Shown one piece after another: positions 1 through 42,812 of a stretch of 55,633 nt of DNA (position 1 is the stretch's first letter; every line of letters starts with the position of its first letter). The translations under genes were made by a program, and so were the position numbers. Origin of the DNA: an uncultured Candidatus Saccharibacteria bacterium (lineage in GTDB: Bacteria; Patescibacteriota; Minisyncoccia; Phycocordibacterales; UBA12445); contig CAZYTH010000008.1 of assembly GCA_964649715.1 (NCBI GenBank), positions 1 through 55,633 on the forward strand. The letters are read 5' to 3'. Below the pieces are notes generated by a model. The model saw only the letters and a program-made list of their open reading frames with translations. It was not told the origin of the DNA and did not search any database.

Positions 1-1
1 T

Positions 2-48
2 CTCAATCTGATTAAATAAAGAGTTCCAATTCCATCCCCGTAGGGTCA
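2..48 (+). repeat. Degenerate tRNA-3'-end-like repeat unit, copy 1
   Basis: CTCAATCT-N11-GAGTTCCAATTCCATCC-CCGTAGGGTCA recurs at 665-731 with the same spacing. The GTTC...TAGGGTCA part resembles a T-arm plus acceptor 3' strand (tRNA-Glu-like; inference). Confidence 0.55.
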
Positions 49-56
49 TAAAATAC

Positions 57-84
57 CAAAACAAGAGCGCAAGCTCTTGTTTTG
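57..84. terminator. Perfect 12-bp hairpin with GCAA tetraloop
   Basis: CAAAACAAGAGC-GCAA-GCTCTTGTTTTG followed by a T-rich run. Confidence 0.7.
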
Positions 85-94
85 TTGTATTTTT

Positions 95-236
95 TGATAC
101 TACAGAGAATCGAAAGACGGAGGCGGGCCCATTGCTGAAAGCAAGGGAGCCGAGTCGGGGCCGAGAGTACTTAGGCTTTTATAAGCGAAGCGAAATAAAA
201 GACTTAGTAACTCGTGGCCGAGACTCTGTATGGCCA
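95..236. repeat. Structured element bounded by imperfect inverted tRNA-arm-like ends
   Basis: Left end TGATACTACAGAGAATCGAA is the reverse complement of a TTCGA T-loop/3' end. Right end CGAGACTCTGTATGGCCA pairs with it (TACAGAG/CTCTGTA). Internal GC-rich hairpins; same layout as 44466-44580. Confidence 0.55.
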
Positions 237-325
237 TACTTGATATTATCTAAAAAAATAGTAGTCTATTGAACTAGATAGGTTTTTTGTTCTAGCTTAA
301 GGTTATTTGAAAAAGGAGAAATAAA

Positions 326-607
326 ATGGTTATTCTTCTAATTATTACAACAGCGGTAATTTTGGGTTTTTTCTTCTCGGTCCTTTCTTCAGCCCTTTCT
401 CTTTTCGAAAAAACAAGGAATACTGTTTACCACTGTCCGGAGCATGGTCACATCGGGAGAGCTGACCAGGGAAGAAAATACTGTTCCACGTGCGGAAATA
501 TTGGTAAAATACTGGTAAAATGCAAAAGATGCGGAAGTGCTGTGTGGCCGAACTGTCGACATTGCGATAAATGCGGAACTAAAAAAGAAACAACATACGA
601 AGAATAA
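326..607 (+). CDS. Membrane-anchored double zinc-ribbon protein
   Basis: AGGAG RBS, N-terminal hydrophobic helix, CPEH / CSTC / CKRC / CRHCDKC motifs, downstream terminator. Confidence 0.8.
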   Translation: MVILLIITTAVILGFFFSVLSSALSLFEKTRNTVYHCPEHGHIGRADQGRKYCSTCGNIGKILVKCKRCGSAVWPNCRHCDKCGTKKETTYEE

Positions 608-620
608 GCAACGCACCGGC

Positions 621-645
621 ACCTCCCTCATCGGGAGGTTTTTTT
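621..645 (+). terminator. Intrinsic terminator
   Basis: ACCTCCC-TCATC-GGGAGGT followed by a T run, just after the 326-607 stop. Confidence 0.75.
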
Positions 646-664
646 ACCCAAATCTCCAAATATC

Positions 665-731
665 CTCAATCTACACAATCACAGGGTTCCAATTCCGTCC
701 CTGCCTACCGGCAAGCAGGCCCATAGGCTCA
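665..731 (+). repeat. Degenerate tRNA-3'-end-like repeat unit, copy 2, with a 20-bp palindromic insert (701-720)
   Basis: CTCAATCT-N11-GGGTTCCAATTCCGTCC-[CTGCCTACCGGCAAGCAGGC]-CCATAGGCTCA, aligned to 2-48. Confidence 0.55.
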
Positions 732-821
732 AATTCCGAACTAGCTTATTTAACCTATATTTTGAACCAACTTTTATTTTGGAAAAATTAACCAATTAAA
801 ATATTCCGAATCAAAAGAAAA

Positions 822-842
822 ACACCCGCTTTTGACGGGTGT
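822..842. terminator. Intrinsic terminator hairpin
   Basis: ACACCCG-CTTTTGA-CGGGTGT with an A run on the left (U run on the minus strand), downstream of minus-strand CDS 854-1240. Confidence 0.65.
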
Positions 843-853
843 ATTTAATTTCA

Positions 854-1240
854 TCAGTTATTTTGTTTAGACTCTTGCAGTCTTGGATAAATTGTCTCTG
901 TTTCGGATATTTGCTCTGAAGTAGATGCGAGGCTTTTCATTTTAAGATATGCCGCGTTTCTTAATTCATACTCAGCAGCTCTTCTGACTTCATACCAGAC
1001 TCCTCCCTCCAGATTTGGAGTTAAGGTTCGATAAAGAAACACATTTTTAGCATCTTCAAAGGTTTTGCTTTCGAGAATTAGTTTATTTCGCTCAAAAATA
1101 CTCGCAACCGCTTTTTGAATTTCTTTTCTACTTTCTTGTTCCCAATTACTGTAGATTAATCCTTTATCACCATTGCATATATAAAGGAAAGAAATAATAA
1201 CAAAAGCACCGACCAATACACCAATTCCAAAATTTCTCAT
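854..1240 (-). CDS. Hypothetical protein with N-terminal membrane anchor
   Basis: ORF 854-1252. Start placed at the second ATG (1240), which has GGAGG upstream. Hydrophobic N-terminus. Confidence 0.7.
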   Translation of the reverse strand: MRNFGIGVLVGAFVIISFLYICNGDKGLIYSNWEQESRKEIQKAVASIFERNKLILESKTFEDAKNVFLYRTLTPNLEGGVWYEVRRAAEYELRNAAYLKMKSLASTSEQISETETIYPRLQESKQNN

Positions 1241-4940: not shown

Positions 4941-6107
4941 ATGAGGATTCTTGCCATAGAAACAAGTTGCGATGACACTGGAATAGCCGTTATTGAGGCA
5001 AAAGGGGGTCTAAAACGGCCCTTTTTCAAGATACTAGCCAACCTCACACACTCGCAAATAGAACTTCATTCTAAATGGAATGGCGTTGTTCCCTTTTTAG
5101 CAAAAAGAGAACATTCCAAAAATCTAATCCCTTTGCTCGAAAGGACCCTTGCCAAAGCAAAACTTCTAAAAGAAAATAAAAAAGGAACCCTGCTCAATAA
5201 AAACCTAGAAATTCTTCTCAACAGAGAACCCGAATTACTTTTTTCCCTAAAAAAATTTTTACAAAATTTCAAAACACCAAAGATAGATGTAATTGCCGTT
5301 ACATACGGACCAGGTCTTGAGCCCGCTTTGTGGACTGGCGTCAATCTCTCAAGGACTTTATCGCTAATATGGGAAAAGCCATTAATCCCGATCAACCACA
5401 TGGAAGGGCACATATTCTCAAGCTTCCTTGAAAAGAAAGATGCAAAAATAGATTTCCCTTCTCTCGCCTTACTCATATCCGGAGGACATACCGAGCTTGT
5501 CTTAATTAAAAACTGGATGAAATACAAAATCCTTGGAAGAACGCGAGACGATGCTGTCGGAGAAGCATTTGACAAGGTGGCAAGAATGATCGGACTTCCC
5601 TACCCTGGTGGACCCGGAATCTCAAGGCTTGCCGAAGAATTTATTCTTGCAAATAAAATCGGGCTCACCTTTCCGCGCCCAATGATAAATTCTAATGATT
5701 TTGATTTTTCTTTCTCCGGACTCAAAACAGCAGTTCTTTATAAAATAAAAGAGCTAGGTGAACTTACCGATAATATAAAAAAAGAAATAGCCTTCGAGTT
5801 TGAAGAATCTGTGGTGGATACGCTTATAAGCAAAACAAAAAAGGCTCTTAAAAAATATGGTGTAAAAACACTAATCATCGGAGGCGGAGTCTCTGCAAAT
5901 AAAAAAATACGAGAGACTTTCAGAAAAATGATAGATGAAGAATTCAGCGATTCAAAAATTTATATTCCGGAAAGAAGCTTTTCTGTTGACAACGCTGCCA
6001 TGATAGCCGTGGCCGGTTATTTTAGATACTTAAAGGACAAGACGAAATTCGAACCAATAAAAATTAAAAAACTTAAAGCTAGTGGTAATTTGACTTTGAG
6101 TAAATAA
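4941..6107 (+). CDS. tsaD: tRNA N6-adenosine threonylcarbamoyltransferase
   Basis: LAIETSCDDT, GPGL, NHMEGH, SGGHT, DDAVGEAFDK, FSFSGLKT, GGVSAN, DNAAMIA. Confidence 0.97.
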   Translation: MRILAIETSCDDTGIAVIEAKGGLKRPFFKILANLTHSQIELHSKWNGVVPFLAKREHSKNLIPLLERTLAKAKLLKENKKGTLLNKNLEILLNREPELLFSLKKFLQNFKTPKIDVIAVTYGPGLEPALWTGVNLSRTLSLIWEKPLIPINHMEGHIFSSFLEKKDAKIDFPSLALLISGGHTELVLIKNWMKYKILGRTRDDAVGEAFDKVARMIGLPYPGGPGISRLAEEFILANKIGLTFPRPMINSNDFDFSFSGLKTAVLYKIKELGELTDNIKKEIAFEFEESVVDTLISKTKKALKKYGVKTLIIGGGVSANKKIRETFRKMIDEEFSDSKIYIPERSFSVDNAAMIAVAGYFRYLKDKTKFEPIKIKKLKASGNLTLSK

Positions 6108-6198
6108 GAAAATAGAAAAAAACAAACAAATCTGTTAACATTTACAATACATGTCCTGCCAAAAAAGCATTCGCGAAAGGACAAAAATACAATAATCA

Positions 6199-8538
6199 AT
6201 GAAAAATAATAATATCCAAAACATAAGAGATGAGAGTACAGAAAAAACACAAACACATTCTGCCCTCAATGGGATAAATGATAAACTTTTAAAACCATAC
6301 GAACCACAGAGTACTGAACCGAGGATATATAAAGTATGGGAAGAAAGCGGTTTATTTAATCCCGACGTTTGTATAAAGAATGGACACACAAAACATGATG
6401 CTCCTGTTTTTTCAATGGTCTTGCCTCCTCCAAATGTCACTGGAACACTACATATGGGACACGCCTTAATGCTAACCATAGAAGATATAATGACCAGATA
6501 CAATAGAATGTCTGGTAAAAGAACTCTTTGGTTACCAGGCACAGATCATGCCGCGATAGCCACTCAATCAAGAGTCGAAAAAGACATCTATAAAAATGAA
6601 AAAAAGAATCGCTACGAAATAGGAAGAGAGGAACTTTTAAAAAGAATAAATGATTTTGCGAAAAACAGTCACGACACCATAATCAACCAACTAAAAATAA
6701 TGGGGGCTTCAGTAGATTGGAGCAGAGAGGCATACACGCTTGATGAAAAGAGAAATATTGCGGTAAAAACAGCATTCAAAAAAATGTATGATGATGGACT
6801 TATCTACAGAGGTCACAGAATAGTGAACTGGGATCCAAAGGGACAAACCACTGTTTCAGACGATGAAGTTGTTTATGAACAAAGAAAAGCAAAATTTTAT
6901 ACTTTCAAATATTCCAAAAATTTTCCCATATCGATATCAACGACTCGACCAGAAACCAAGGTTGGAGACACCGCTGTTGCAGTGCACCCAGAAGATGAAC
7001 GTTACAAAAAATTTGTGGGAAAAGAATATGATATTGAATTCTCTGGAGTAAAAATTCACATAAAAATAATAGCAGATGAAACCGTGGATAAAGATTTTGG
7101 AACCGGAGCACTTGGTGTCACCCCTGCACACAGTATGACCGACTGGGATATTGCAGAAAGACACGGACTTCCAAAGATCCAGGTCATAAACGAATACGCA
7201 AAAATGACCGTAGAAAATCCAGAATTAAAAGGAAAGAAAACAACAGAGGCAAGAGATATTATTATTGAATGGTTAAAAAAAGAAAATCTTTTAGAGAAGG
7301 AAGAAGATGTAGATCAAAATATATCTCTAGCAGAGAGAACTGGTGGAATAATAGAGCCATTACCAAAAATGCAATGGTTCGTTGATGTAAATAAAAAATT
7401 CAAGATCCCATCATCAAAAATAAACGGAATAAATTCTGGAGACGAAACGACCCTAAAAGAAATAATGAAAAAAACAGTTGAAAGTGGTCAAATAAAAATA
7501 ACGCCAGACCATTTTAACAAAACATATTTCCATTGGATAGAAAATCTTCGCGATTGGTGCATAAGTAGACAAATCTGGTTTGGACACAGAATACCTGTGT
7601 GGTATCGAGAAAAGACCGATGTTCAAAAAACCGAAATAAAAGAATCAACCGAACTAAACAACAAAAACGTAGAGATATATTGCGATATTAATCCGCCAGA
7701 AGGAGAGAATTGGAAACAAGACGAGGATACCCTAGATACTTGGTTCTCCTCTGGTTTATGGACTTTTAGCACACTTGGTTGGCCCGAACAAACAAGCGAT
7801 CTAAAAATATATCATCCAACAAACATGCTTGAGACTGGCTATGAAATTCTCTTTTTCTGGGTTGCAAGAATGATACTCATGACGGGATATCTAATAGGAG
7901 AAATACCATTTGAAAAAGTTTATCTTCATGGGACAGTAAGGGATTCCCGGGGCAGAAAAATGAGTAAATCCCTTGGAAATGGGATAGACCCGATGGATAT
8001 TGCAAATAAATATGGAGCAGATGCAGCAAGAATGTCTTTAATCGCGGGCGCAGGACCTGGCACAGACACAAGGGTGTATGAAGAAAAGATAAAAGGATAT
8101 AAAAATTTTGCCAATAAGATATGGAATGTGACTAGATTTATTCTGTCTAATGGTGATAAAACAATGATCGAGCCAGAAGAATATAGCGATGAAAATAAAA
8201 AGATATTTTCTGAATTCAATGAAACAGTAAAAAACATAAACACCAATATGGAAAACAACAAATTCCATATTGCAGCAGAGGAGATTTACCATTACTTCTG
8301 GCATATCTTTGCCGACAAAATAATTGAAGAATCAAAAAACAAAATAAATTTAGCAAATTCAAACAAAAAAGAAACTGAAGAAACCATATGGGTTTTAAGA
8401 AAGATACTGGAAACAAGCGTAAAGATTCTCCATCCCTTTATGCCTTTTGTCACAGAAGAAATTTGGAAATTATATAACGAACATTTTGAAAATAAAGAAT
8501 ATCATCTTATAATGATAGAACAATGGCCGAAAGTATAA
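6199..8538 (+). CDS. valS: Valine--tRNA ligase (no C-terminal coiled coil)
   Basis: PPPNVTGTLHMGH (HIGH motif), GTDHAAIATQ, TTRPET, DWCISRQIWFGHRIP, DTWFSSGLW, KMSKS. Confidence 0.97.
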   Translation: MKNNNIQNIRDESTEKTQTHSALNGINDKLLKPYEPQSTEPRIYKVWEESGLFNPDVCIKNGHTKHDAPVFSMVLPPPNVTGTLHMGHALMLTIEDIMTRYNRMSGKRTLWLPGTDHAAIATQSRVEKDIYKNEKKNRYEIGREELLKRINDFAKNSHDTIINQLKIMGASVDWSREAYTLDEKRNIAVKTAFKKMYDDGLIYRGHRIVNWDPKGQTTVSDDEVVYEQRKAKFYTFKYSKNFPISISTTRPETKVGDTAVAVHPEDERYKKFVGKEYDIEFSGVKIHIKIIADETVDKDFGTGALGVTPAHSMTDWDIAERHGLPKIQVINEYAKMTVENPELKGKKTTEARDIIIEWLKKENLLEKEEDVDQNISLAERTGGIIEPLPKMQWFVDVNKKFKIPSSKINGINSGDETTLKEIMKKTVESGQIKITPDHFNKTYFHWIENLRDWCISRQIWFGHRIPVWYREKTDVQKTEIKESTELNNKNVEIYCDINPPEGENWKQDEDTLDTWFSSGLWTFSTLGWPEQTSDLKIYHPTNMLETGYEILFFWVARMILMTGYLIGEIPFEKVYLHGTVRDSRGRKMSKSLGNGIDPMDIANKYGADAARMSLIAGAGPGTDTRVYEEKIKGYKNFANKIWNVTRFILSNGDKTMIEPEEYSDENKKIFSEFNETVKNINTNMENNKFHIAAEEIYHYFWHIFADKIIEESKNKINLANSNKKETEETIWVLRKILETSVKILHPFMPFVTEEIWKLYNEHFENKEYHLIMIEQWPKV

Positions 8539-11650: not shown

Positions 11651-11699
11651 ATTTGTAGATAACAAAATCAAAGCTTACGCTTTGATTTTGTCTACAAAT
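11651..11699 (-). terminator. Long hairpin abutting the tRNA-Gly 3' end
   Basis: ATTTGTAGA..CAAAATCAAAGC-TTAC-GCTTTGATTTTG-TCTACAAAT. Confidence 0.65.
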
Positions 11700-11769
11700 G
11701 CGGGTAGCGAGAATCGAACTCGCGTCTCAACCTTGGGAAGGTCGCATTCTACCACTAAACCATACCCGC
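11699..11769 (-). tRNA. tRNA-Gly(CCC)
   Basis: GCGGGTA/TACCCGC acceptor, CGACC-TTCCCAA-GGTTG anticodon arm, GAGTTCGATTCTC T arm. Confidence 0.97.
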
Positions 11770-11821
11770 ATATTAAACATATTTTATTTTTATTTTAAAA
11801 ACAATCAAAGACTTTTTCTGT

Positions 11822-11873
11822 AGGTCGTGTTCGGACCCTGCCCGTCCTCTGGCGGGACTAAACCATACCCGCA
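11822..11873 (-). pseudogene. Degenerate 5'-half copy of tRNA-Gly interrupted by a 19-bp GC-rich palindrome
   Basis: 17-nt identity 11857-11873 with 11754-11770. AGGTCG..TTC..ACC (11822-11837) aligns to 11739-11753. Insert CTGCCCGTCCTCTGGCGGG at 11838-11856. Confidence 0.65.
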
Positions 11874-18473: not shown

Positions 18474-18675
18474 AAATTTATCTCTTTTTGCTTTTAAAAA
18501 CATCCAGTGCAACCAAACACTTGTTCGTCTCTTGGTTGTGTGTATTTCCAAAAACAGTAAAGAGAAATTAACACTCTAAAATTAATAATAAAGTACTCTC
18601 AATGAGTAATTTTAATATTTTAAGAAGATACTTACAAACTAGACACAACACAATAAGGTTTGTATAATAGTCAAA

Positions 18676-19036
18676 GTCTGTGTCGGACAACTGCTTCTAA
18701 TTCATTTTAGGGGAGGAAAGTCCGAACATTCATTAAAAACAGTGCTCACTAAATTAGTGAACACTAATAAGGTAGCGGGTAACACCCGCCTTGGGTAACC
18801 ATAGAGGTGCGAACAGAGACGTCAAGCTTCGAAAGGAGTTTGAGCGCTTCCGCAAGGATGCGTAGCTCCCGTAAAAATACGGGAGGTGCAACGGCAAAAC
18901 CCTTACTTGAATGCAAGGCCGTGATTTAACGAAAGTTAAATAGTGCCGCTAGAGCCAGGTAGTAATATTTGGCCCAGATAAATAGTTGTCTTCGCCGTTT
19001 ATTCGGCGAAACAGAATTCGGCTTATAGGCACAGAC
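18676..19036 (+). ncRNA. rnpB: RNase P RNA
   Basis: P4 signatures GAGGAAAGTCC and ACAGAATTCGGCTTA; P1 GTCTGTGTC/GGCACAGAC; TATAAT at 18663-18668. Confidence 0.95.
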
Positions 19037-19079
19037 AATATAAAAACCCGTTCTTATGAACGGGTTTTTATATTGTCTG
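19032..19079. terminator. Perfect 22-bp hairpin between convergent rnpB and nrdJ
   Basis: CAGACAATATAAAAACCCGTTC-TTAT-GAACGGGTTTTTATATTGTCTG. Confidence 0.8.
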
Positions 19080-31651: not shown

Positions 31652-31736
31652 GGAGGGTTCGCATAGCGGTCTAGTGCGCACGCTTGGAAAGCGTGTGTGG
31701 GGCAACCCACCGAGAGTTCGAATCTCTCACCCTCCG
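31652..31736 (+). tRNA. tRNA-Ser(GGA)
   Basis: GGAGGGT/ACCCTCC acceptor, CACGC-TTGGAAA-GCGTG anticodon arm, long variable arm GTGG-GGCAAC-CCAC, GAGAG-TTCGAAT-CTCTC T arm. Confidence 0.98.
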
Positions 31737-32086
31737 CACTTAGTTTTTATTATCGGAAGACCCTAAGTCCTTAAACCGATACATAGCAAAAAACACCCTA
31801 TTTACAAAAGGTGTTTTTTCTATTTATTTAAAAAATATTCTTTTTACACTATCTAAAAAATGGTAAAATGTAAGTATGAATTAAAAATTCACCATAGACA
31901 TTAAAGCTTTTGGCCCACAGTGTTTATGTGGGTTTTTTAATTCATTTGGGCGTTTAAATTGAATAGGTATACCTTCCAAAAAACGCCGCGTCGATTATTC
32001 GATATAGCTGTGAGTAAACAAGTAAAGCCTCAAGAACCTTACTTTATCATAACTAGCGCCCTATTACCAACCAGCTTAATATTTCA

Positions 32087-32245
32087 ATGAGTAAAGGATC
32101 AAAAACATTCCCGCTTGGCAGAGACTCTAAAACCGGAGAATTCATACCAGTAAAAGAGGCCCTCCGTCGCCCAAACACCACAACGGTTGAGAGGATTCCA
32201 AAATCCGGAAATGGGGACACAGGCAGAGGTGGGAAAAGAAGATAG
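32087..32245 (+). CDS. Small basic protein (52 aa) with a GRDSKTG motif, absent from the ORF track
   Basis: Hand translation: MSKGSKTFPLGRDSKTGEFIPVKEALRRPNTTTVERIPKSGNGDTGRGGKRR. Co-directional, 32 nt before the GIY-YIG gene. Confidence 0.7.
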   Translation: MSKGSKTFPLGRDSKTGEFIPVKEALRRPNTTTVERIPKSGNGDTGRGGKRR

Positions 32246-32277
32246 TAAAAATGGTCGCTCCTGCTCATTAGCTATAT

Positions 32278-32628
32278 ATGCAACCTTTATGGCAAAAGTG
32301 CCTAGGAAATATATGGGGTTCTTTAGTGAATGTTGATTTGAGTCACCCTCATTTTAATAATCTAGAAGGAGTCTATATTATTTGGCAAGGAAACGGCCCC
32401 GTAATTAGGATTGGGCAGGGCATCATTCGAGATCGCCTCGCGGCACACCGAAGAGATCCAGCAATCACCCGATATTCTAATCTCTATGTAACATGGGCGC
32501 CGGTTTCCGATTTTTATCGTGACGGAATAGAGAGATATCTTGCAAATATTCTGAGACCAGTCGTCGGTGATGCGTTTCCAAATGTGTCACCCATACCGGT
32601 ATCTCTTCCTTGGGCTTGGCAAGCATAA
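32278..32628 (+). CDS. Stand-alone GIY-YIG-like nuclease
   Basis: GVYIIW...IRIGQG..RDRL..H...IERYL matches the GIY-YIG core with its Arg and Glu. Confidence 0.7.
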   Translation: MQPLWQKCLGNIWGSLVNVDLSHPHFNNLEGVYIIWQGNGPVIRIGQGIIRDRLAAHRRDPAITRYSNLYVTWAPVSDFYRDGIERYLANILRPVVGDAFPNVSPIPVSLPWAWQA

Positions 32629-32646
32629 AATATCGTTAAAATTAAT

Positions 32647-32677
32647 AAAATCACCCGCTGGAAGGTCGGGTGATTTT
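32647..32677. terminator. Bidirectional terminator
   Basis: AAAATCACCCG-N9-CGGGTGATTTT between the GIY-YIG gene and the recombinase. Confidence 0.75.
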
Positions 32678-34013
32678 AGTTTTGTTCAATCTCCACAATT
32701 CTTCTTGTAATTTTTATTTTAGATTTAAAGCATCCCATTAACTCTCGCTTCTCCTCATTCGCACCTTCGAGTAGGACATATTTGGCATAAGTTTTGAGAT
32801 CTATGTCCTCATGTTTTTCCCCTGAACCAGAGATGCCGAGAACACCTTTTCTAAATCTGTTGAATCTTTTAAGCTCTTCCTCGAATTTATATTTTATTCC
32901 AGCCTCGTTTAGATCTATCTTATCCATGAGTTTTACGAGTTGTTCTATTAAATCTTCTTCTCTTAAATACATACTTTTACAGTGACGGTCCTTGGATCTA
33001 CCACAACCGTAATAAATATATCTAGCGGTCGTTCCGTTTTTAAGTGGCTTATATTTTTCCTCAGCAGATATTCCTGAGCCGCAGAGACCGCAGATCATAA
33101 GCTTAGTAAAGGCGAATTCTTTATTCTGCCGGTGAATGTCGTCCCTTTTGAGTTGTTCTTGAACCTTATCGAATAATTCTTTTGTAACTATTGTTTCGTG
33201 TTTTCCTGTATACCAGTTTCCGGATTTTTTCGGATATTCAAAGACTCCATAATAAAAAGGGTTAGATAAGGTCCTATAAATATTTCCGAGCGCAATATTA
33301 TAATTTCCGACGGATTTAAAATTCAATTCAAATTTTAGCCAATGATATATCTTCCTACCGGACCATTTATCATTGGCTACTTTCTCATACATCTTCTTTA
33401 CTATCGGCGCGCGGTCGGGATCTATAATGACCTGACACTTCTTATCCATATGTTTCTGATTTAAGTATCCCAGGGGAGCTATCCCTGGCCACAAACCCAT
33501 TTCTACACGAGCTCGTAGTCCTCGTCTTACATTCACGCCTCTATTATCATTCTCAAGTTTCGCTTGAGAACCAAGAATCATTAGGAGAAATTTTTCGTTT
33601 GGATTATTCGTAAATCGTTGTCCGTAGGTTCTGATTTCTAGAAGCAACTTCTGATCCATCAGGTCCACAATTCTTCCGAGATCTCCTCCGTTCCTGGAGA
33701 TACGATCCGGCGCCCACGTTAGAAGTCCGTTGTATTTTCCGGTTTTAATATCCTCGACAATTTCATTAAAGACGGGTCTTTGTCCGGTCTCTTTAGCAGA
33801 ATGACTTTCTCTTTTTATCTCTACGACCTCCAAATTTTCCCGCTCTGCCACCTGAAGCATCTCCTTTATTTGAGAATCGATGCTCAAAATCTGCCTCTCC
33901 GAATCCTCGGTACTTTTGCGAGCATATAAGCAAAAGCGAATTTTAATTGGCTCTTTATTTTCCTTATTTTGGTGATTAAACCCCACCAGGGCGTTGATTG
34001 CGCTTGTTTCCAT
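32676..34013 (-). CDS. Large serine recombinase (resolvase + recombinase + zinc ribbon)
   Basis: CLYARKST (catalytic Ser), PDRISRN, APLGY, NPFYYG, CGLCG...YYGC. Confidence 0.93.
   Translation of the reverse strand: METSAINALVGFNHQNKENKEPIKIRFCLYARKSTEDSERQILSIDSQIKEMLQVAERENLEVVEIKRESHSAKETGQRPVFNEIVEDIKTGKYNGLLTWAPDRISRNGGDLGRIVDLMDQKLLLEIRTYGQRFTNNPNEKFLLMILGSQAKLENDNRGVNVRRGLRARVEMGLWPGIAPLGYLNQKHMDKKCQVIIDPDRAPIVKKMYEKVANDKWSGRKIYHWLKFELNFKSVGNYNIALGNIYRTLSNPFYYGVFEYPKKSGNWYTGKHETIVTKELFDKVQEQLKRDDIHRQNKEFAFTKLMICGLCGSGISAEEKYKPLKNGTTARYIYYGCGRSKDRHCKSMYLREEDLIEQLVKLMDKIDLNEAGIKYKFEEELKRFNRFRKGVLGISGSGEKHEDIDLKTYAKYVLLEGANEEKRELMGCFKSKIKITRRIVEIEQN
33987..34002 (+). repeat. 16-bp direct repeat, copy 1 (inside the recombinase 5' coding region)
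   Basis: CAGGGCGTTGATTGCG, identical to 39313-39328. Confidence 0.8.
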
Positions 34014-34144
34014 ACACACACAATGAATGACGCATACCGCCCAACAAGTCTAGCTTGGTTGACCATTTATTGACTGAATGTCGTGTTCAAATTTATATGT
34101 TTTGGTCGATTGTTAAAAAATAAATATAACTATATATTTTATTT

Positions 34145-34867
34145 ATGAAATTGTTATTTATAGATGAAATATCTGGCAATAAAGAGATAAATAAAGATCT
34201 TTTTGGTTTGAGCGTCATCCAAATAGATCTGACAAAATATTCAAAAATTTGCAAAGAATTTAACGACTGTCTGAAAAAATATAATTGGCCGCAAGACGAA
34301 GAATTAAAAGGTCGCTACTTATTCAGCAGAGACCCCGCTGGACAAAAGAAAACACCCGACGAAATGGTCGCAATGACCGACGAGATAGTGGGTTCACTAG
34401 TTAGCGATAAGAACGCCAGAGGTAACGTTTTATTTTATTATAACTATAATGGAAATAATTTTGATAATTATCTAAAACTACTCAATAAAGCGATAAACGA
34501 CCTGCAGAAATGTGGCAAATGTAATGGTGGTAAAAATTTAGCGATGGTCTTTTTAGATTATTCTGATTATTTATTCAAGAATATCGACAGACTTAATTCG
34601 GAAACATGCATCTCTCTTAAAAAGAGGAATTATGCCCTTCTTGAAAAGATGGTTACCCTAGTTAGCTCCTCAAATAATGCTGTGGGAATTGTCTATGCGG
34701 ATGTTTTAGCCTATATCTGCCGTTGGTTCATTGAAAATCCGAAAAACAACGATCTTACGTTATTTGATTTTGGAAACGACTACAATTTAAAGAGGAAAAT
34801 AACGACCATTTATGGGATTGTTAATAAAATCAAAAGTATAAAATTAGTTGAGCTTAAACAACCTTAA
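34145..34867 (+). CDS. DUF3800-like (RNase H-like fold) protein
   Basis: FIDE.SG, ELKG, FLD, SS...GIVYADVLAY acidic motif pattern. Confidence 0.65.
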   Translation: MKLLFIDEISGNKEINKDLFGLSVIQIDLTKYSKICKEFNDCLKKYNWPQDEELKGRYLFSRDPAGQKKTPDEMVAMTDEIVGSLVSDKNARGNVLFYYNYNGNNFDNYLKLLNKAINDLQKCGKCNGGKNLAMVFLDYSDYLFKNIDRLNSETCISLKKRNYALLEKMVTLVSSSNNAVGIVYADVLAYICRWFIENPKNNDLTLFDFGNDYNLKRKITTIYGIVNKIKSIKLVELKQP

Positions 34868-35233
34868 TGTGTTTAATCTTAAATCGTGTTCCCAAACTCT
34901 TATTATCTTCCACCCAATACTTTTATAATATTTATTAACCTCTTTATCTCTTCTCTTATTATTTTCTATTTTCTGAGACCAAAATTTATTTCTTGTTTTT
35001 GGAATAGTTTTGTGCTTCTTACATCCATGCCAAAAACAGCCATCTACGAAGACCGCTGTCTTTTCTTTTTTAAAAACAAAATCTGGGTGTCCGTATAAAG
35101 GTGAATTTCTACGCCAACCGGAAATTTTATTTAAACGGAGAAATTTTATAAATTGAAGTTCGGTTGTTTTGTTGCCTCCGGCTTTAATCGCCGCCATATT
35201 GCGACTTCTCGCTTCTTTTGAAATACGATCCAT
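34844..35233 (-). CDS. vsr: Very short patch repair endonuclease
   Basis: MDRIS...RSRNMAAIK, PDFVF, FVDGCFWHGC, W..KIENNKRRD, WEHD. Confidence 0.95.
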   Translation of the reverse strand: MDRISKEARSRNMAAIKAGGNKTTELQFIKFLRLNKISGWRRNSPLYGHPDFVFKKEKTAVFVDGCFWHGCKKHKTIPKTRNKFWSQKIENNKRRDKEVNKYYKSIGWKIIRVWEHDLRLNTLRLFKLN

Positions 35234-35234
35234 A

Positions 35235-36359
35235 TTATTTAAAACGGACTTGAAGATTTAGACGAAAGATATTTTTGTCGTCTTCTTTTGCCGCCGTTCC
35301 ATAACCATGCCTTGTTGTGCTCGGTGATTCAAATCTGGTATTTTCATATAAATAATCAAGGAATTTTTCCCTATTATACAAATGGAAACACACCAAGTCC
35401 CCATCTTCTTTGACAACAATATATCCACCCTGCGCTTCAGCTCTACCACTCCATGGTTTTGCCGGAGTCATTCCTAAGGCAACAGCCTCCAAAAATTGTT
35501 TTACTTTATACTGATAGTCGCCGAGATTTAAGTTATATCGGGTCAATGAAGGGTCTCCCGGCAGCGATTGAACCAACTCCTTAACAGATGTTCCCGTGCC
35601 CCTGAAAAAATTTGCCAGCATGGTGGCTATAATTTCCGGCATAACATAATCGATGCGAGCCAAATTACTTCTAAAGACATCGCTTTCCATCCTTGCAAAT
35701 TTCAAAGTTCCGCCTGTTCTATAAACCTCATTTGCACGATCTTTTACTACATTCTTGGTCGGAACAGCATTTAGCGTGTCGGAATCCAACTCGCCGGTAA
35801 TTTCATAGACAAAACTCGTATTACTTTTAGACGCGTTAAGAAGTGTCGGGGATGATCCGATTTCCGATTTAATACTAAAGCCCGACTCTACTTCTGTCGG
35901 GGAAAATCTATCGTGAACAATAAGACGAATATCCGATTTATCGGAGCTTGAGGCTTTTATCTGTTCGCAAAGTAGTAGATTCATAAATTTTTCAGCCTCG
36001 GGGATAGAAGTTTTTCCCTTCCCGATATTTTTTATAGATTCAAAGATTCTACGTACTCCATTTTTTAAATCAGAAATATCTATTGCGACAATTTTTTGGC
36101 CATCGATATTAAAAATCGAAACCTCATTGCCGTCTTTGGCGGTTGTAAGATCATAAACTTTTTTCTCTTTCTTTCCTGTAATTCTACTCTTTTCTTCGCG
36201 GATAATTTTTAAAACATCAAGATATTTATCCTCTATCTTATTGAGATTCTCATCGGCAGCGTATAAAACTTTATCGGAAAGTATTTTTAAGAATGCGTAT
36301 ATTTCACTCCATTCTCCTTTATTTCCTTTGCGAATTTTTTGGATAGAATTATTTATCAT
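35235..36359 (-). CDS. Type II restriction endonuclease, HpaII family
   Basis: GNKGEWSEIY, SDKSDI...GFSIKS, PTLLNAS, FESPSTTRH; sits between a C5 MTase and vsr. Confidence 0.8.
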   Translation of the reverse strand: MINNSIQKIRKGNKGEWSEIYAFLKILSDKVLYAADENLNKIEDKYLDVLKIIREEKSRITGKKEKKVYDLTTAKDGNEVSIFNIDGQKIVAIDISDLKNGVRRIFESIKNIGKGKTSIPEAEKFMNLLLCEQIKASSSDKSDIRLIVHDRFSPTEVESGFSIKSEIGSSPTLLNASKSNTSFVYEITGELDSDTLNAVPTKNVVKDRANEVYRTGGTLKFARMESDVFRSNLARIDYVMPEIIATMLANFFRGTGTSVKELVQSLPGDPSLTRYNLNLGDYQYKVKQFLEAVALGMTPAKPWSGRAEAQGGYIVVKEDGDLVCFHLYNREKFLDYLYENTRFESPSTTRHGYGTAAKEDDKNIFRLNLQVRFK

Positions 36360-37233
36360 ATTTTTCTAAGGTATCAATTATTTCTTTCGCGACAGCGGAA
36401 ATAGCGGGTACAATAACTGCATTACCGAGTTGCTTCATCGCCTGCGAGTTTGTGACGGGGAAATTGTAATTCTTAGGGAAACCCATCATCTTTTTTCCTT
36501 CTTCCGGAGTTAATCGTCTTTCTTTTCCGGATACCAGATAAGAATCCCAATTTCTTCGATCTCCTAAGCCAGATCCGCGACCACCTACACGTAATGTAAA
36601 ACCAACCTTACGAGAGCATTCTTCACCGAAAATATCGGACATCGTCCTTTTTAATGGAATCGGATCCGGAAATTTGAAAGGAATAAACTTGTCTCTAAAA
36701 CCAACCATATATAAACGAGGGCGATGTTGGGGTACATTAAAATCTGTTCCACGTACGATTTTATAATGAAAAGAGTATCCCAGGTCATCTTCGATAACAC
36801 TTTTAATTTTTGCGAAAGTTCTTCCGTCGTCATGTTTAAATAAGTGACTGACGTTTTCAATGAAATAAGCCTTAGGTTTTTTCTCTTTTATTATTCTGGC
36901 AATATCATAAAACAAAGTTCCTCGTGTCTCACTAAAACCTTTTTTATATCCGGCATTACTGAACGGCTGACATGGAAATCCTCCCGTGAGAATATCGAAG
37001 TCGGGAATATCTTTTTCGTTTACTTTTGTTATATCACCGGCAAATCTGTTTTCCGAGAAAATATGAGGCGAGATCTTTTTAAAATTTTTTTCGTACGTTG
37101 TTCTCGCATGCTTGTCCCATTCACTTACAAATTCGCATTGAGCTCCGTGTTTATGAAAAGCGAGATGGAAGCCCCCGATACCTGCGAATAAATCTATGAA
37201 AGTTATCGGTTTTTTGTTCTTTTTCGGATTCAT
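36349..37233 (-). CDS. DNA (cytosine-5) methyltransferase, cognate to the REase
   Basis: FIDLFAGIGG, GGFPCQPFS, ENV, PQHRPRLY, RRLTPEE, QLGNAV. Confidence 0.96.
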   Translation of the reverse strand: MNPKKNKKPITFIDLFAGIGGFHLAFHKHGAQCEFVSEWDKHARTTYEKNFKKISPHIFSENRFAGDITKVNEKDIPDFDILTGGFPCQPFSNAGYKKGFSETRGTLFYDIARIIKEKKPKAYFIENVSHLFKHDDGRTFAKIKSVIEDDLGYSFHYKIVRGTDFNVPQHRPRLYMVGFRDKFIPFKFPDPIPLKRTMSDIFGEECSRKVGFTLRVGGRGSGLGDRRNWDSYLVSGKERRLTPEEGKKMMGFPKNYNFPVTNSQAMKQLGNAVIVPAISAVAKEIIDTLEKYDK

Positions 37234-37243
37234 ATTATACAGA

Positions 37244-37903
37244 TTATATTAACCCTTTTTGACTGAAACTCCAATATTGCGATCCAGTTAAAATAATATG
37301 GTCTTTTAGTTCAATCCCAAGAATACTTCCGGCTTCTTTTATGCGATCGGTAATCATCCGATCTTCATCTGACGGGCTTACTTCTCCTGAAGGATGATTA
37401 TGTACAACAATAATAGAACAAGCACCATTTTGAAGCGCTGATTCAAAAATCTCACGTGGGTTAGCTATTCCCTCATTCAGGGTGCCGATAGAGATAATCT
37501 CCCGTTTTATTAGAAAATTTCTGGAATTTATAAGGAAAACAGCAAAGTGCTCTCTTTTTTGGTCGCGAATGTCTGAGCATAGTTCAAATATTTTTTCGGG
37601 AGTAAGTATTATTTCCGGCTGTTTATAATATAATCTCCTTCCAATTTCTATCGCGGAAATAATTTTAGCTGACTTAATCTTTCCCAAACCCTTAATCTTC
37701 GCCAGTTCGTTGACAGTGATTTTTTCCGGTCCTATTTCTTTTATCACTTCTATGATTTTTTTAGAAAGAGAAACAACATTTATGCCTTTAATTCCTGTCC
37801 CGATAATAGTCGCTAGTAATTCGTGATCCATTAGTTTTATGAGGCCGTATCTTTCCAGTTTTTCCCTCGGGCGTTCTAATTTTGGTAAATCTTTTATTTT
37901 CAT
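37244..37903 (-). CDS. radC: RadC-family JAB domain protein
   Basis: PREKL, KGLG..K HhH, PREIF, HNHPSG...S..D...DHII. Start set at MKIKD. Confidence 0.93.
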   Translation of the reverse strand: MKIKDLPKLERPREKLERYGLIKLMDHELLATIIGTGIKGINVVSLSKKIIEVIKEIGPEKITVNELAKIKGLGKIKSAKIISAIEIGRRLYYKQPEIILTPEKIFELCSDIRDQKREHFAVFLINSRNFLIKREIISIGTLNEGIANPREIFESALQNGACSIIVVHNHPSGEVSPSDEDRMITDRIKEAGSILGIELKDHIILTGSQYWSFSQKGLI

Positions 37904-38006
37904 ATTGTTAATTATTTGCTCTACCGAATATACCGCAAATATGAAGTTAAGGCCACTTCGCAACTTGTTCTTTTTAAGTTAATATGATTAATTCTAAATT
38001 AAAAAC

Positions 38007-38438
38007 ATGCACGATATTTTTATTAGAAATTTACCCGTTCAATTATCTTCTTCCATACAAGAACAATATAACGCACTCTTACCGGTGTTTAAATCCTATG
38101 CACAGGGAAAGAATGGTAAATATTACTCGGCTGTAAATAATAATTACGATATTGGTTGTTTCATGCTTGGATTAGCAATTATATATAAAACCATGATTAT
38201 ACCTCTCGCGGGTGCAAACTTGTGCCTTGATGATTTTAGGCGCAGAAAAAGTATCGATAAAATCAAAATAGGAAAATACTTTTTTTCGAGTAGAGATCAT
38301 CAAAAAATCGGAAATATGCTCAATGATTTAAATAAAATATTGATTAAATATAGTATTCCGGAAAATATTTTACTTTTCAGCGATGTAAAAGAATTTGCAA
38401 GAAATTTGAATGTCTATTTACTCAATAAAAATGGCTAA
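38007..38438 (+). CDS. Hypothetical protein
   Basis: 143-aa ORF whose stop overlaps the next start (ATGGCTAA). Confidence 0.65.
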   Translation: MHDIFIRNLPVQLSSSIQEQYNALLPVFKSYAQGKNGKYYSAVNNNYDIGCFMLGLAIIYKTMIIPLAGANLCLDDFRRRKSIDKIKIGKYFFSSRDHQKIGNMLNDLNKILIKYSIPENILLFSDVKEFARNLNVYLLNKNG

Positions 38439-39156
38439 TAATAAAACTCCATTTAAAGATGCTTCTAAATTTATCAAAGATATTGATTCTTTTTTAACTA
38501 AACATTCTGCATTATTCAGATTTCAAGGTAGTCGCATCAGTCATTTTTTTGAAATTACTTGCTACAATGATGTTGTAAAATTTTACGAAAATAACGGATT
38601 TGTCGCTTCACCCAAAAATCTCAACAAAGATGTCTTCTTGTATAAAATATCAGCAGCGGGAAATACTGATAATTTTTCATATTTTATCGTAAGTAAAAAA
38701 ATTAAAGGCACTTTGTATGAATTTGAGGTACACCACAACCTATCAATTGAATGCGCACACGAAAGAGATATTTTTTATACCGCCGACATTTCTGTGATAA
38801 AAAAAGATTCGGTAGAGAGAATTGATCCCCCCACCTATTCCCAAAAGAGAAGTTGTTGCAGGGCGAAAAACTTAGAAACTTTCTTTGAAGTCAAACATTT
38901 ATCTCCTTTCCCAGAATTATTATTTTCATTTACCGGATTTCCTGATAATTTTTTTATAAAAGAAGGAAGAAAGAGAATAATCACACACCTTGCTCCCTCG
39001 CTTTTAATATCAGGGAGGACTAATTACCACGCCAAAAAGATCAAAGAATATATAGAGAACCGTTTTGGAGTCAACATAATAGCCAATCTTTTTGGGACAC
39101 CGTCTGCCGTATATTCAAAAAAATATCCGAAGAAAAAGATAGGCACTCTGCCTTAG
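38431..39156 (+). CDS. Putative PD-(D/E)xK nuclease-fold protein
   Basis: FFEI...TADISVI...FFEVKH spacing resembles E...D...ExK; coupled to the upstream gene. Confidence 0.5.
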   Translation: MANNKTPFKDASKFIKDIDSFLTKHSALFRFQGSRISHFFEITCYNDVVKFYENNGFVASPKNLNKDVFLYKISAAGNTDNFSYFIVSKKIKGTLYEFEVHHNLSIECAHERDIFYTADISVIKKDSVERIDPPTYSQKRSCCRAKNLETFFEVKHLSPFPELLFSFTGFPDNFFIKEGRKRIITHLAPSLLISGRTNYHAKKIKEYIENRFGVNIIANLFGTPSAVYSKKYPKKKIGTLP

Positions 39157-39286
39157 CCTCATCGAGTGACGACATTATAAAGGACCTTCGCAAAACCTAT
39201 CTTTTAAGCTATTATGTATAAACAATTAAATATCGATATCGAGTGACCTAAACCTCTCAAAGAACTTGTGGGGCATGGTCCAAAAT

Positions 39287-39423
39287 CGCAATCAACATAA
39301 AGAACCCGACATCAGGGCGTTGATTGCGTCATATTGGGAAACCAATATGTGGGCCTAAAAACCCTCCTGGTGCCGGGCTTTTTCTGTCTCTGCACCGGGA
39401 ATTATAAATAAAACGCAATCAAC
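39287..39423. repeat. Repeat cluster: direct-repeat copy 2 (39313-39328) plus inverted CGCAATCAAC copies (39287-39296, 39414-39423)
   Basis: Exact matches read from the sequence; also a CATATTGG-GAAA-CCAATATG hairpin at 39330-39349. Confidence 0.75.
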
Positions 39424-39425
39424 AA

Positions 39426-40118
39426 ATGAATATTGAAAATAATTCCCTTGGGAGATTACTGAGAAGTATATTCTTAGCATTTATCTTTATTGTTCTGCTT
39501 ACAGCTATTTCAGATAGCCCTGCCTTCGGTTTTTGGATGGGAATAATTATGACGGTGATAGTAATATCGTTTTCTCGTAAACAAGATCAGCAGAGAAAAC
39601 AACAGAAAAAAGAAAAGTTGGCCAAAGAGGCGGAGGTCTATTTTTCCAAAATAAACAAAGATAAGAAGTTGATCGAGATTCCAAGTTCTATATTTCTCGA
39701 AAAAGGCGAAAAACTTCTTGTTGAAAACAAAACAGCCTTGATGGAAACCAAATCAGTCAGAAGTAGCTCGGGTGGTTTCGGTGGTGTCAGTATCGTAAAG
39801 GGGGTAAGGGTGGGTGGATACTCTGGTACTTCTAGCAGTTCTCTCGAATGGAAGGTGCTTGATTCCGGTTTTGTTTATCTAACGACGAAGAGAATTATTT
39901 TCAGGGGCAATAAAGAAAATAGAAATATAGAATTAAAAGATATTTTTGCTTTTGACTCTTATTCAGAAAGTATAGGTTTAAGCCTTAATTCCAAATCAAA
40001 GAACTTGAGATTTGTTGTGGATAATCCTCTAATCTGGTCAGGGCTTGTAAATATACTCAAATCCGTAGAAAATCCTGAAGATCTTAGTGAAATTAATTTA
40101 AATTTAAAGTTTGAATAA
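39426..40118 (+). CDS. Membrane protein with two N-terminal TM helices and a C-terminal PH-like domain
   Basis: Two hydrophobic helices, charged linker, G.VYLTTKRIIF.G motif. Confidence 0.7.
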   Translation: MNIENNSLGRLLRSIFLAFIFIVLLTAISDSPAFGFWMGIIMTVIVISFSRKQDQQRKQQKKEKLAKEAEVYFSKINKDKKLIEIPSSIFLEKGEKLLVENKTALMETKSVRSSSGGFGGVSIVKGVRVGGYSGTSSSSLEWKVLDSGFVYLTTKRIIFRGNKENRNIELKDIFAFDSYSESIGLSLNSKSKNLRFVVDNPLIWSGLVNILKSVENPEDLSEINLNLKFE

Positions 40119-40547
40119 CTATAAAGTCGAGATGCGATCGAATCCTAGCTCATCTTTCTTTCTTCCCGCTTCAATCTCTCTTTTATCTTCATCTGTAAGA
40201 GGTCTCGGCCCGATTATTTCTACCTTGATTCCCTCGACCTTCGAATCGTTTGCGAATACGTTTATCGGTCTTGGACGAATATATCTCTTGCAATTATTAT
40301 CGAGATAATATTTTATCGCCTTAAAATCTCCCTTTTTGATCATACCGAACATTTGACCTTCACACATATCTACAAACAAACTCCTGCCCATACCAAGAGC
40401 CTCTTCCATTTTCACCGCGAAGCTTTTACTCTTCCTCCATCGGTAAATGGTCGCTTTTGCAATCCCGCATCTTTTGGCGGCGACAGACACAAGAGGAATT
40501 TCCTCCAGAGTCTCCAAAAATTTTTGTTTATCATTATTGGACCTCAT
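40119..40547 (-). CDS. HTH protein resembling phage small terminase subunits (phBC6A51-like HTH)
   Basis: KFLETLEE..LVSVAAKRCGIAKATIYRWRK followed by helical E..L...I.KGD..AI.YYL; overlaps the ParB-methylase stop. Confidence 0.55.
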   Translation of the reverse strand: MRSNNDKQKFLETLEEIPLVSVAAKRCGIAKATIYRWRKSKSFAVKMEEALGMGRSLFVDMCEGQMFGMIKKGDFKAIKYYLDNNCKRYIRPRPINVFANDSKVEGIKVEIIGPRPLTDEDKREIEAGRKKDELGFDRISTL

Positions 40548-42776: not shown

Positions 42777-42812
42777 TTGAATATAATTTATTCCTGTTAT
42801 AGAGTTGAGTCA

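Follow-up and report, generated by a model that had tools for sequence, protein, structure and literature searches.

The stretch of DNA analysed here, referred to as the window, comprises 55,633 nucleotides of contig CAZYTH010000008.1 from an uncultured Candidatus Saccharibacteria bacterium; its GC content is 35%, and a bacterial class-A RNase P RNA, 5 tRNAs and a LOOT RNA were identified in it with ARAGORN and Rfam. An earlier note on this DNA had pointed to three short GC-rich palindromes interrupting tRNA-derived fragments, CTGCCTACCGGCAAGCAGGC (case 1, 701–720), CTGCCCGTCCTCTGGCGGG (case 2, 11838–11856) and AGCAAGCCATCTATATGGCTTGC (case 3, 44443–44465), and to a related CCCGCC...GGCGGG palindrome at 44601–44636 (hereafter pal36), and had ascribed them to a single insertion process. 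All four sequences were located at these positions, and cases 1 and 2 do each follow CC and start with CTGCC. We found that case 3 is part of a composite tRNA-3′-end element (T3E), a non-coding and apparently undescribed element of 150–250 nt. The analysis as a whole suggests that two things are superimposed around tRNA genes, namely 1) T3E, which includes case 3 and possibly case 1, and 2) dispersed GC-rich mini-palindromes, comprising pal36 and the family of case 2; we put the probability of this reading at about 0.6. The earlier observation was partly confirmed and its interpretation partly supported: for pal36 the idea was on the right track, for case 3 it was incorrect, and for cases 1 and 2 it is still undecided.

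T3E units in the window

The tRNA-Ser(GGA) gene of the window is followed by an island of about 12.7 kb, to the right of which an ORF (open reading frame)-less, hairpin-dense region was located at 44237–44874. Within it, 44420–44800 folds far better than shuffled sequences (z −11.5 and −9.3), and 44432–44800 is an array of decaying T3E units for tRNA-Ser(GGA) (Table 1). The first unit (44432–44581) is well kept and of type B. It contains the inverted 3′ end of tRNA-Ser(GGA) in two pieces, GCGGAGGGT and GTGAGAGATTCGAA, 23 nt apart, with the case-3 hairpin between them. The claim that a hairpin splits an inverted tRNA-Ser end was therefore correct, but the hairpin had not been inserted into a dead tRNA piece: it is a native module, the conserved and covarying stub hairpin of T3E. 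With a perfect 9-bp stem it is also the only strong palindrome of the three, cases 1 and 2 being imperfect. The GT on its two sides, described as duplicated, is a linker and not a target-site duplication, because the flanking bases (A...G-Y) belong to the conserved element in other genomes.

Partial unit 2 represents the distal end of another unit (44585–44662), and modules of its GGTCC-TGTAA-GGACC type, in which the stem covaries while the NGTAA loop stays constant, occur in L079, L180, L053, L059 and L166 (loci outside the window are numbered with L). Further downstream the units are more decayed; a variant of the GATAGATTCGAAGCCCCGATGAAGG piece occurs in run X1, where it is preceded by the hairpin GAAAGCCAT-TACCC-ATGGCTTTC. 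It was also noticed that wastewater and landfill runs contain the sub-segment 44503–44578 of unit 1 in further contexts, with a depth several times higher.

A complete unit of type A is located near the start of the window. It consists of an antisense T arm ACAGAGAATCGAA (102–114), an internal CGGAG, GAGTCGGGGCCGAGAG, a long hairpin capped by AAGCGAAGCGAA, CGTGGCCGA and a sense arm GAGACTCTGTATGGCCA (about 219–237); its cognate tRNA is not in the window. This is the only place in the window where four motifs of the T3E family co-occur, and it folds better than its shuffles (z = −4.9).

Table 1. Positions of T3E parts, palindromes, RNA genes and neighbouring features in the window
Feature	Position	Strand	Remarks
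Decayed partial T3E-like copy 1	2–57	+	No internal hairpin; cut by window start
Type-A T3E unit, complete	102–237	+	No stub hairpin, no antisense acceptor arm
Decayed partial T3E-like copy 2	665–745	+	Repeat family D13
Case 1 hairpin, imperfect, 20-nt, GC-rich	701–720	+	Present in copy 2, absent in copy 1; unique in window
tRNA-Gly(CCC), intact	11698–11770	−	ARAGORN and Rfam
tRNA-Gly 5′ fragment	11820–11873	−	49 nt upstream of intact tRNA-Gly(CCC)
Case 2 palindrome, 20-nt, imperfect	11837–11856		CCTGCCCGTCCTCTGGCGGG; family CCTGCCCG(N2-3)TCTGGCGGG
Bacterial RNase P RNA	18675–19041		
tRNA-Ser(GGA)	31652–31737	+	Last 22 nt = arms at 44434–44479; cognate of T3E array at 44.4 kb
Island, about 12.7 kb	31738–44395		Between tRNA-Ser(GGA) and terminator + T3E array; Pfam, Rfam
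Large serine recombinase	32676–34019	−	Pfam; within island
LOOT RNA	39245–39365	+	Rfam RF03000, 75.9 bits; inside island
Bidirectional terminator-like hairpin	44400–44431		A run, CGCC/GGCG stem, T run
Unit 1, antisense tRNA-Ser acceptor 3′ strand	44434–44442	+	GCGGAGGGT
Case 3 stub hairpin	44443–44467	+	A-GCAAGCCAT-CTAT-ATGGCTTGC-GT; exactly at acceptor/T-stem junction
Unit 1, antisense tRNA-Ser T-stem 3′ strand and T loop	44466–44479	+	GTGAGAGATTCGAA, E=0.013
Unit 1, type-B internal domain	44480–44570	+	..GCGAACAAAAACGCGAGGCGGTGCCCAGGC, AT hairpin with GGAA loop, GCCGCGGG; homologous to L038, L056, L073
Unit 1, sense arm	44571–44581	+	CGAATCTCTCA; acceptor part lost, A run after
pal36 copy	44601–44636		Inside partial T3E unit 2
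Partial unit 2, distal end	44639–44662	+	Hairpin GGTCC-TGTAA-GGACC, then sense arm (C)GAATCTCTC
Further decayed T3E pieces	44663–44800	+	Hairpin at 44670–44694
17-bp palindrome of two inverted T arms	44707–44746	+	Decayed T3E piece
Antisense T arm and internal start	44753–44777	+	GATAGATTCGAAGCCCCGATGAAGG; decayed T3E piece

Recurrence and fold of T3E

Read along the tRNA-sense strand, T3E has the order tRNA, short hairpin or terminator, antisense acceptor 3′ strand, 9-bp stub hairpin, antisense T-stem 3′ strand with T loop, internal region of 60–170 nt, and sense T-loop/T-stem/acceptor end. Both arms reproduce the final ~20 nt of the tRNA upstream; the antisense copy is split exactly at the acceptor/T-stem junction, and the internal domain has two or three helices and is conserved. 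Scanning one genome per species with the pattern "hairpin, short gap, AGATTCGAA" gave three true matches, L142 (tRNA-Ser), L143 (tRNA-Thr) and L144 (another tRNA end), all neighboured by housekeeping genes; the hairpin was constant, and its flanks were antisense to a tRNA 3′ end, either that of the gene immediately upstream or one copied nearby. Scanning with the hairpin only yielded about 25 members behind tRNA-Ser, Thr, Val, Phe, Leu, Lys, Gln and Ala genes, carried by members of the Candidate Phyla Radiation (CPR), Elusimicrobia, the betaproteobacterium Undibacterium terreum and metagenome-assembled genomes (MAGs) labelled Chlamydiae.

An unbiased screen made use of loci retrieved via htpX, a choice blind to T3E, in which an antisense copy of 11 nt of a tRNA's own T arm was sought within 200 nt downstream with at most 2 mismatches. 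Such copies were found downstream of 15 of the 85 tRNAs, about 2 being expected by chance (p=2.6e-9). T3E is present behind about 1 in 6 tRNA genes in related CPR genomes, and its recurrence is no search artefact. In the htpX loci the sequence of the stub hairpin differs and its form, A-GCRAG-NNNN-loop-NNNN-CTYGC-G, is kept.

One possibility is that the hairpins represent common terminators, or palindromes arisen by chance as intergenic DNA decays, and that their similarity to tRNA is coincidental. This would agree with the presence of about 25 perfect GC-rich hairpins across the window, many of which are terminators, and with the weakness of cases 1 and 2 as palindromes. However, the tRNA matches of 17 nt and 9+14 nt are significant, no T run follows cases 2 and 3, and identical or homologous hairpins occur in the same context in other phyla; we consider this explanation scarcely credible, and the recurrence across genomes refutes it.

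Comparison of the stub hairpin in 16 distinct units revealed 95.8% of cells to be paired and compensatory changes at 7 of the 9 pairs, whereas none of 500 shuffles was as good and no slid register came close. The loop varied from 3 to 5 nt, and the wobble pairs in the stub stems read G.U or U.G on the tRNA-sense strand. For seven Elusimicrobia units behind tRNA-Val, Gln and Ala, aligned with MAFFT and not fitted to structure, RNAalifold gave a consensus of 52 pairs, 23 of them compensatory and one an invariant G.U, with acceptor-like and T-like closing helices and three internal helices. Likewise, 37 pairs (23 compensatory, with G.U in 6/6 at one pair) were obtained when the unit at 102–237 was aligned with CPR and Elusimicrobia units. 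As the two arms pair, the strand folds into a mimic of an acceptor-T minihelix, from which the stub hairpin emerges at the acceptor/T-stem junction, that is, at the exit of nt 8–48 in a real tRNA; the T-loop halves pair with each other, leaving no true T loop.

Rfam 15, searched at gathering scores and at E<=10, gave no relevant match in window 1–860, window 44200–44900, L011 5300–5650 or L153 7270–7570. GAUUCGA-like motifs and an ANKN... frame had prompted a reading as transfer-messenger RNA (tmRNA) or split tRNA, which was rejected since ARAGORN and Rfam were negative; the permuted tmRNA model reached at best 11.8 bits against a gathering score of 47, the candidate tag frame, as read from the sequence, ends atypically, and the "D-analogue" motif changes with the T loop of the tRNA.

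The motif GAGCGAAGCGA(G) was seen capping AT-rich stems at window 160–215 and in spacers or apical loops of many T3E units (L010, L011, L079, L144). GCGAAGC is an unusually stable DNA mini-hairpin, and the motif could hint at a role of single-stranded DNA.

Tandem or stacked units occur in L238, L174, L157 and window 44432–44800, and in L238 each terminates in the 17-nt end of the tRNA; a sense copy of the tRNA end also closes units in L142, L153, L244 and the window (44571–44581 and 44653–44662). Nearly identical internal domains lie behind Val, Gln and Ala tRNAs in L153, L244 and L254, with arms matching each tRNA, and the encoded CCA is kept in the distal copy and missing from the gene-proximal one (L238, L241). 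Entry into tRNA 3′ ends is suggested because the tandem ends of L238, the same cores behind different tRNAs and the distal-only CCA all fit it.

A strong rival to a mobile T3E is a resident, vertically inherited RNA gene, a non-mobile minihelix mimic which would have arisen by partial duplication of a tRNA end and been kept matched to its tRNA by gene conversion. The covariation and the G.U asymmetry on the tRNA-sense strand are what such a gene would display. The element also occupies orthologous sites, in the order htpX, tRNA-Ser, element across many CPR species and at tRNA-Val in four Elusimicrobia, and the units of one genome are mutually diverged (L011, L180), both of which favour a resident gene. 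On the other hand, a terminator is often situated between tRNA and unit, no clear promoter was seen at the T3E units, the locus was in no RNA run, and the decaying arrays and near-identical cores behind different tRNAs are easier to obtain by insertion. We regard this alternative as possible rather than probable.

Since T loops of tRNAs are classical crossover sites of integrases, T3E may also be viewed as a DNA-level attachment (att) scar of tRNA-targeting integrative elements, with the hairpin as a protein-binding palindrome and no function for a folded strand. Direct repeats of the tRNA 3′ end, a restored tRNA, tandem or stacked units and, in the window, a recombinase island at the same tRNA all agree with a scar. 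They have to be set against the following: no integrase was found in or adjoining the ~25 small units, which at 150–250 nt contain no ORFs; units of this size are conserved across phyla; the internal helices have many compensatory changes and strand-specific G.U pairs; and the covarying stem with its loop of 3–5 nt fits a folded hairpin but not a duplex dimer site. We consider an att scar improbable. Inversion or att debris of the large serine recombinase as the main cause was rejected, the same antisense-arm architecture being present in ~25 recombinase-free loci.

The island itself encodes, besides the large serine recombinase, Vsr, an HpaII-type endonuclease, a C5 methylase, RadC, a helix-turn-helix protein, a ParB-N6/N4 methylase, DUF5677 and the LOOT RNA; its GC content rises up to 40% at 32–34 kb. 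In ~25 other loci T3E lies within 13–90 nt 3′ of its tRNA, and a terminator-like spacer, with equivalents in L143, L203 and L059, normally stands between them; we infer that the island entered between tRNA-Ser(GGA) and its T3E array. A degenerate copy of the tRNA end, AACTCTAGTGGCCCGCA, is located at 44376–44392, close to where the island ends on the right. Two contigs of run X1 lack 103–104 nt at window 44268–44373, just 5′ of the terminator and the T3E array, which indicates a population length variant at this edge. As to the relatives of the window, its HtpX has at most 65% identity to proteins of Patescibacteria/Paceibacteria MAG contigs among one-per-species reference genomes, relatives with 88–92% identity were found in a wider protein search only on ~2-kb contigs, and near-identical DNA is present in wastewater and landfill metagenomes, all of which places the host among uncultured CPR bacteria.

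pal36, the case-2 family and case 1

pal36 has an outer and an inner stem, each of 7 bp, with a GTTC bulge between them on the 3′ side, and a loop of 4 nt. Near-identical copies were first noticed in two IMG/VR contigs (the two true copies among 60 IMG/VR matches to a loose pattern) and in other CPR loci, and a scan with 28 fixed bases detected it in at least 119 genome contigs; it is absent from the collections of cultured phages and plasmids. Hosts among the matches listed include Patescibacteria, Bacteroidota, Ignavibacteria, a Bdellovibrionales MAG and a Nanoarchaeota MAG, and several MAGs carry it on 3–5 contigs, compared with one copy in the 55-kb window. Among these matches, 83 of 124 distinct copies have the exact length of 36 nt; 30-nt forms exist, and the loops vary. 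No conserved flanking motif or GTAG-like head of pal36 was found, just a weak T at −2 and A at +2.

The flanks of these 124 copies were examined by removing the palindrome, joining 45 nt from each side and searching for tRNA matches with E<1e-3, random 90-mers from the same loci serving as controls. tRNA-like flanks were found for 28/124 copies (23%) among the matches listed vs 18/600 controls (3%), corresponding to an odds ratio of 9.4 (Fisher p=4.6e-12), so that the claimed preference for tRNA-like DNA holds for pal36. By reading, about 21 alignments run straight through the insertion point, indicating that insertion was clean and without duplication. Comparison with the neighbouring intact tRNA likewise revealed clean insertions lacking a target-site duplication in L036, L302 and L306. 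Most sites lie between the D loop and the 3′ strand of the D stem, in either orientation; others are T loops (L357, L374) and further hairpin loops, including a T3E stub hairpin (L276). The tRNA copies bearing pal36 are fragments or have no matching acceptor strand, often 30–50 nt upstream of an intact copy (L036, L288, L302, L306). In L357 (2332–4983), nine tandem 327-bp units each carry pal36 in the T loop of a 3′ fragment of tRNA-Arg(CCT).

Several other identities of pal36 were rejected: 1) an archaeal-type bulge-helix-bulge tRNA intron, as the palindrome-bearing copies are truncated or have no matching acceptor strand and lie beside an intact copy, and removal of pal36 from the L036 copy gave no tRNA call; 2) back-to-back ends of a larger transposon, as no solitary half-sites were found in ~120 loci of up to 8 kb; 3) a clustered regularly interspaced short palindromic repeat (CRISPR), as the spacing is not array-like, the loops vary and 30-nt forms occur; and 4) a library adapter, to which the same variation is contrary, the assemblies moreover coming from many sources.

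Case 2 does interrupt a copy of tRNA-Gly, as had been claimed. Nucleotides 1–17 of tRNA-Gly(CCC) are present exactly at 11873–11857 of the minus strand (blastn-short, E=1.8e-4), followed by the palindrome and then by a diverged remainder of the D arm and the anticodon-stem 5′ strand (GGTCCGAACACGACCT vs GGTAGAATGCGACCT). The same geometry, with a 5′ fragment, a palindrome in the D arm, a spacer of 30–50 nt and an intact tRNA, is seen in L036/L289, L288, L302 and L306. A metagenome scan with CCTGCCCG(N2-3)TCTGGCGGG gave at least 125 matches; among those listed, 61/125 were the 19-nt form CCTGCCCGCCTCTGGCGGG and six were identical to the 20-mer of case 2, mostly on low-GC metagenomic contigs, and in L355 the 19-nt form occupies the D arm of a tRNA beside pal36. 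tRNA-like flanks accompanied 3/125 of the matches listed vs 5/600 controls (p=0.14). The family is real and dispersed, but without the preference for tRNA that the earlier note had supposed. In a separate instance, at L036 7395–7500, an intact tRNA-Met is preceded, at a distance of 103 nt, by a 24-nt 5′ fragment of tRNA-Met, with an antisense copy of its anticodon arm and no palindrome between them.

For case 1, the two copies of direct repeat D13 (2–38 vs 665–701, 76% identity) do differ by the palindrome, whereas the tRNA origin claimed for the repeat is not established, because no tRNA-model match was obtained in 1–860 at E<=10. An insertion in one copy and a deletion in the other cannot be distinguished. 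Short similarities suggest that case 1 occupies the variable position of internal hairpin 1 in a decayed T3E copy: GAGTTCCAATTCCATCC..CCGTAGGG in copy 1 weakly resembles the type-B "antisense T arm and internal-domain start", a homology that we infer; copy 2 fits the order (hairpin GCCTACCGGCA..)(CATA(T)GGC) of a related metagenomic contig, directly 5′ of the homologue of 44503–44578; and a 12-nt core, TGCCTACCGGCA, is common to case 1 and the hairpin at the equivalent place of another unit from run X1, the sequence after the hairpin being CCATAGGC in case 1 vs CATATGGC in the run X1 contig. This placement is the weakest link of the analysis. A 93-aa ORF at 326–607 (+), between the repeat copies, encodes a protein that starts with a membrane helix and has a tail rich in cysteine and resembling a zinc ribbon; it has no Pfam match and was found on only one other short contig, which starts at window position 49.

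The single process proposed in the earlier note would be one similar to that of repetitive extragenic palindromes (REPs) and their associated RAYT transposases, pasting GC-rich palindromes into tRNA fragments in all three cases. pal36 behaves as expected of such a process, cases 1 and 2 share a CCTGCC start, palindromes like those of cases 1 and 2 adjoin pal36 in L270, L343 and L355, and T3E units as well as dead tRNA copies bear several different hairpins. The four hairpins, however, fall into at least three unrelated sequence families and cannot be aligned as one, the case-2 family shows no enrichment in tRNA-like DNA, and a search for an HUH, RAYT or transposase gene among the 58 ORFs of the window found none. 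For case 3, with its GT a conserved linker, the process is refuted by covariation within the larger structure and by tRNA flanks that change with the neighbouring tRNA. As an account of all three cases we judge it very doubtful. A generic screen for perfect GC-rich hairpins in tRNA-like DNA of the unbiased loci detected only anticodon arms and terminators.

Possible origin and relation to known systems

The arrangement proposed here is that T3E would be a small non-autonomous element which enters tRNA 3′ ends, restores the tRNA and leaves a direct repeat. Its active form may be a folded single strand, RNA or single-stranded DNA, that mimics its own target, with a recombinase supplied in trans; in addition, or instead, it might be a stable tRNA-like RNA. 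pal36 and the case-2 family would be non-autonomous hairpin repeats, pal36 possibly being mobilised in trans at single-stranded or hairpin-prone DNA and surviving only in non-functional tRNA copies and T3E units.

Similar architectures are known. Tandem stacking, the site at the tRNA 3′ end, restoration of the tRNA and a displaced direct copy are features that T3E has in common with tRNA-targeting integrative elements, from which it differs by its 150–250 nt, the absence of an integrase, an inverted target copy split by a hairpin and a covarying core. As in the attP of phage CTX and the attC of integrons, inverted target-like arms tens of nucleotides apart fold into a duplex mimicking the target, and extra-helical features give polarity. 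Integration of such a folded site by CTX phage or an integron cassette results in the order sense copy, loop, inverted copy, cargo, sense copy. All T3E units have this order, although the likeness is architectural only: CTX and integrons target dif or attI and not tRNA ends, and T3E has a structured core of ~100 nt as cargo and no known link to Xer or IntI. The coaxial acceptor/T helix with the rest replaced is shared with tRNA-like domains (tmRNA, the bacterial Y RNA YrlA, viral 3′ structures, mascRNA); unlike these, T3E has no true T loop, its arms are copied from one neighbouring tRNA and it has no Rfam match.

Other tRNA-associated insertions were also observed. In L027 (~5030–5330) and L065 (~5975–6270), a tRNA-Ser is split in the anticodon loop by an insert of ~250 nt containing a whole replacement tRNA-Ser(GGA); the left junctions are alike (TTGTTCCCGATTT..), and the insert looks like a different small tRNA-targeting element. 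In L058 (~5630–5960), a GIY-YIG-like ORF is located between a 13-nt 5′ fragment of tRNA-Ser and an intact tRNA-Ser, with the hairpins TGCGCC..GGCGCA and CCCGCC-GAAGA-GGCGGG after the fragment.

pal36 and the case-2 family resemble RAYT-associated REPs and REPINs in being short, imperfect, GC-rich, non-coding, multi-copy and intergenic palindromes with a conserved sequence and a bulge, for which mobilisation in trans as single-strand hairpins is presumed. They lack a GTAG-type head, and the window has no RAYT; moreover, REPs and REPINs are species-specific, whereas pal36 is one nearly invariant 36-mer across phyla, marked in tRNA-derived sequence and hairpin loops. From miniature inverted-repeat transposable elements pal36 differs in leaving no target-site duplication, and neither an autonomous relative nor a solitary half-site was found in ~120 loci of up to 8 kb. 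GC-rich hairpins have invaded AT-rich reduced genomes as yeast mitochondrial GC clusters, fungal double-hairpin elements and Rickettsia palindromic elements. These mini-palindromes also enter structured RNA genes; their sequences, hosts and sizes differ from those of pal36, which, in contrast to them, leaves no duplicated target, and we know of no enzyme for them.

Several points weigh against the proposal of a mobile T3E superimposed on dispersed palindromes. Empty and filled alleles, a comparison raised in the earlier note, were seen as a pair at no site among the wastewater and landfill contigs aligned to cases 2 and 3, which were short and mainly showed sub-segments recurring elsewhere. 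No recombinase or HUH enzyme was linked to T3E or pal36, the one recombinase of the window being in a separate island, and the locus was found in no RNA run. Since both arms are copied from the same tRNA, some of their complementarity follows automatically. Units without a stub hairpin exist (L002, L050, L062), so this hairpin is not obligatory; many members were retrieved by patterns fixing part of the sequence, and some MAGs may owe labels such as Nitrospira and Chlamydiae to erroneous binning. Survival or co-duplication, and not targeting, could account for the excess of pal36 in tRNA-like DNA; no such excess is seen in the case-2 family, and case 1 is assigned to T3E on short similarities.

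No Rfam family covers T3E or pal36, and a full-text literature search that included the pal36 sequence found no description. Mini-palindromic repeats, tRNA-end integrating elements and tRNA-like RNAs are known kinds, of which these variants appear to be unrecorded. It is tentatively suggested, as something we hold to be conceivable but not likely, that T3E would represent a new class of non-coding mobile element or RNA gene with a built-in target mimic, re-targetable via its two arms, that pal36 would be a structure-seeking hairpin transposon across phyla, perhaps including DPANN archaea, and that tRNA genes of reduced-genome bacteria would be a habitat of selfish elements. If confirmed, the near-invariance of pal36 across phyla and its concentration in tRNA loops would point to a trans-supplied enzyme recognising DNA or RNA structure.

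If the proposal is true, about 1/6 of the tRNA genes in a large part of the Patescibacteria, and some in other phyla, would be trailed by an unannotated structured element. Such elements have the look of fragmentary tRNAs or pseudogenes and could cause tRNA-based island finders to fail. A culturable carrier is available in Undibacterium terreum CGMCC 1.10998 (locus L157), whose unit follows tRNA-Ser(GCT). T3E may be a case of target mimicry by a folded single strand whose arms appear to be re-programmable, and it could function as a decoy or substrate of RNase P, the CCA-adding enzyme or tRNA-targeting toxins.

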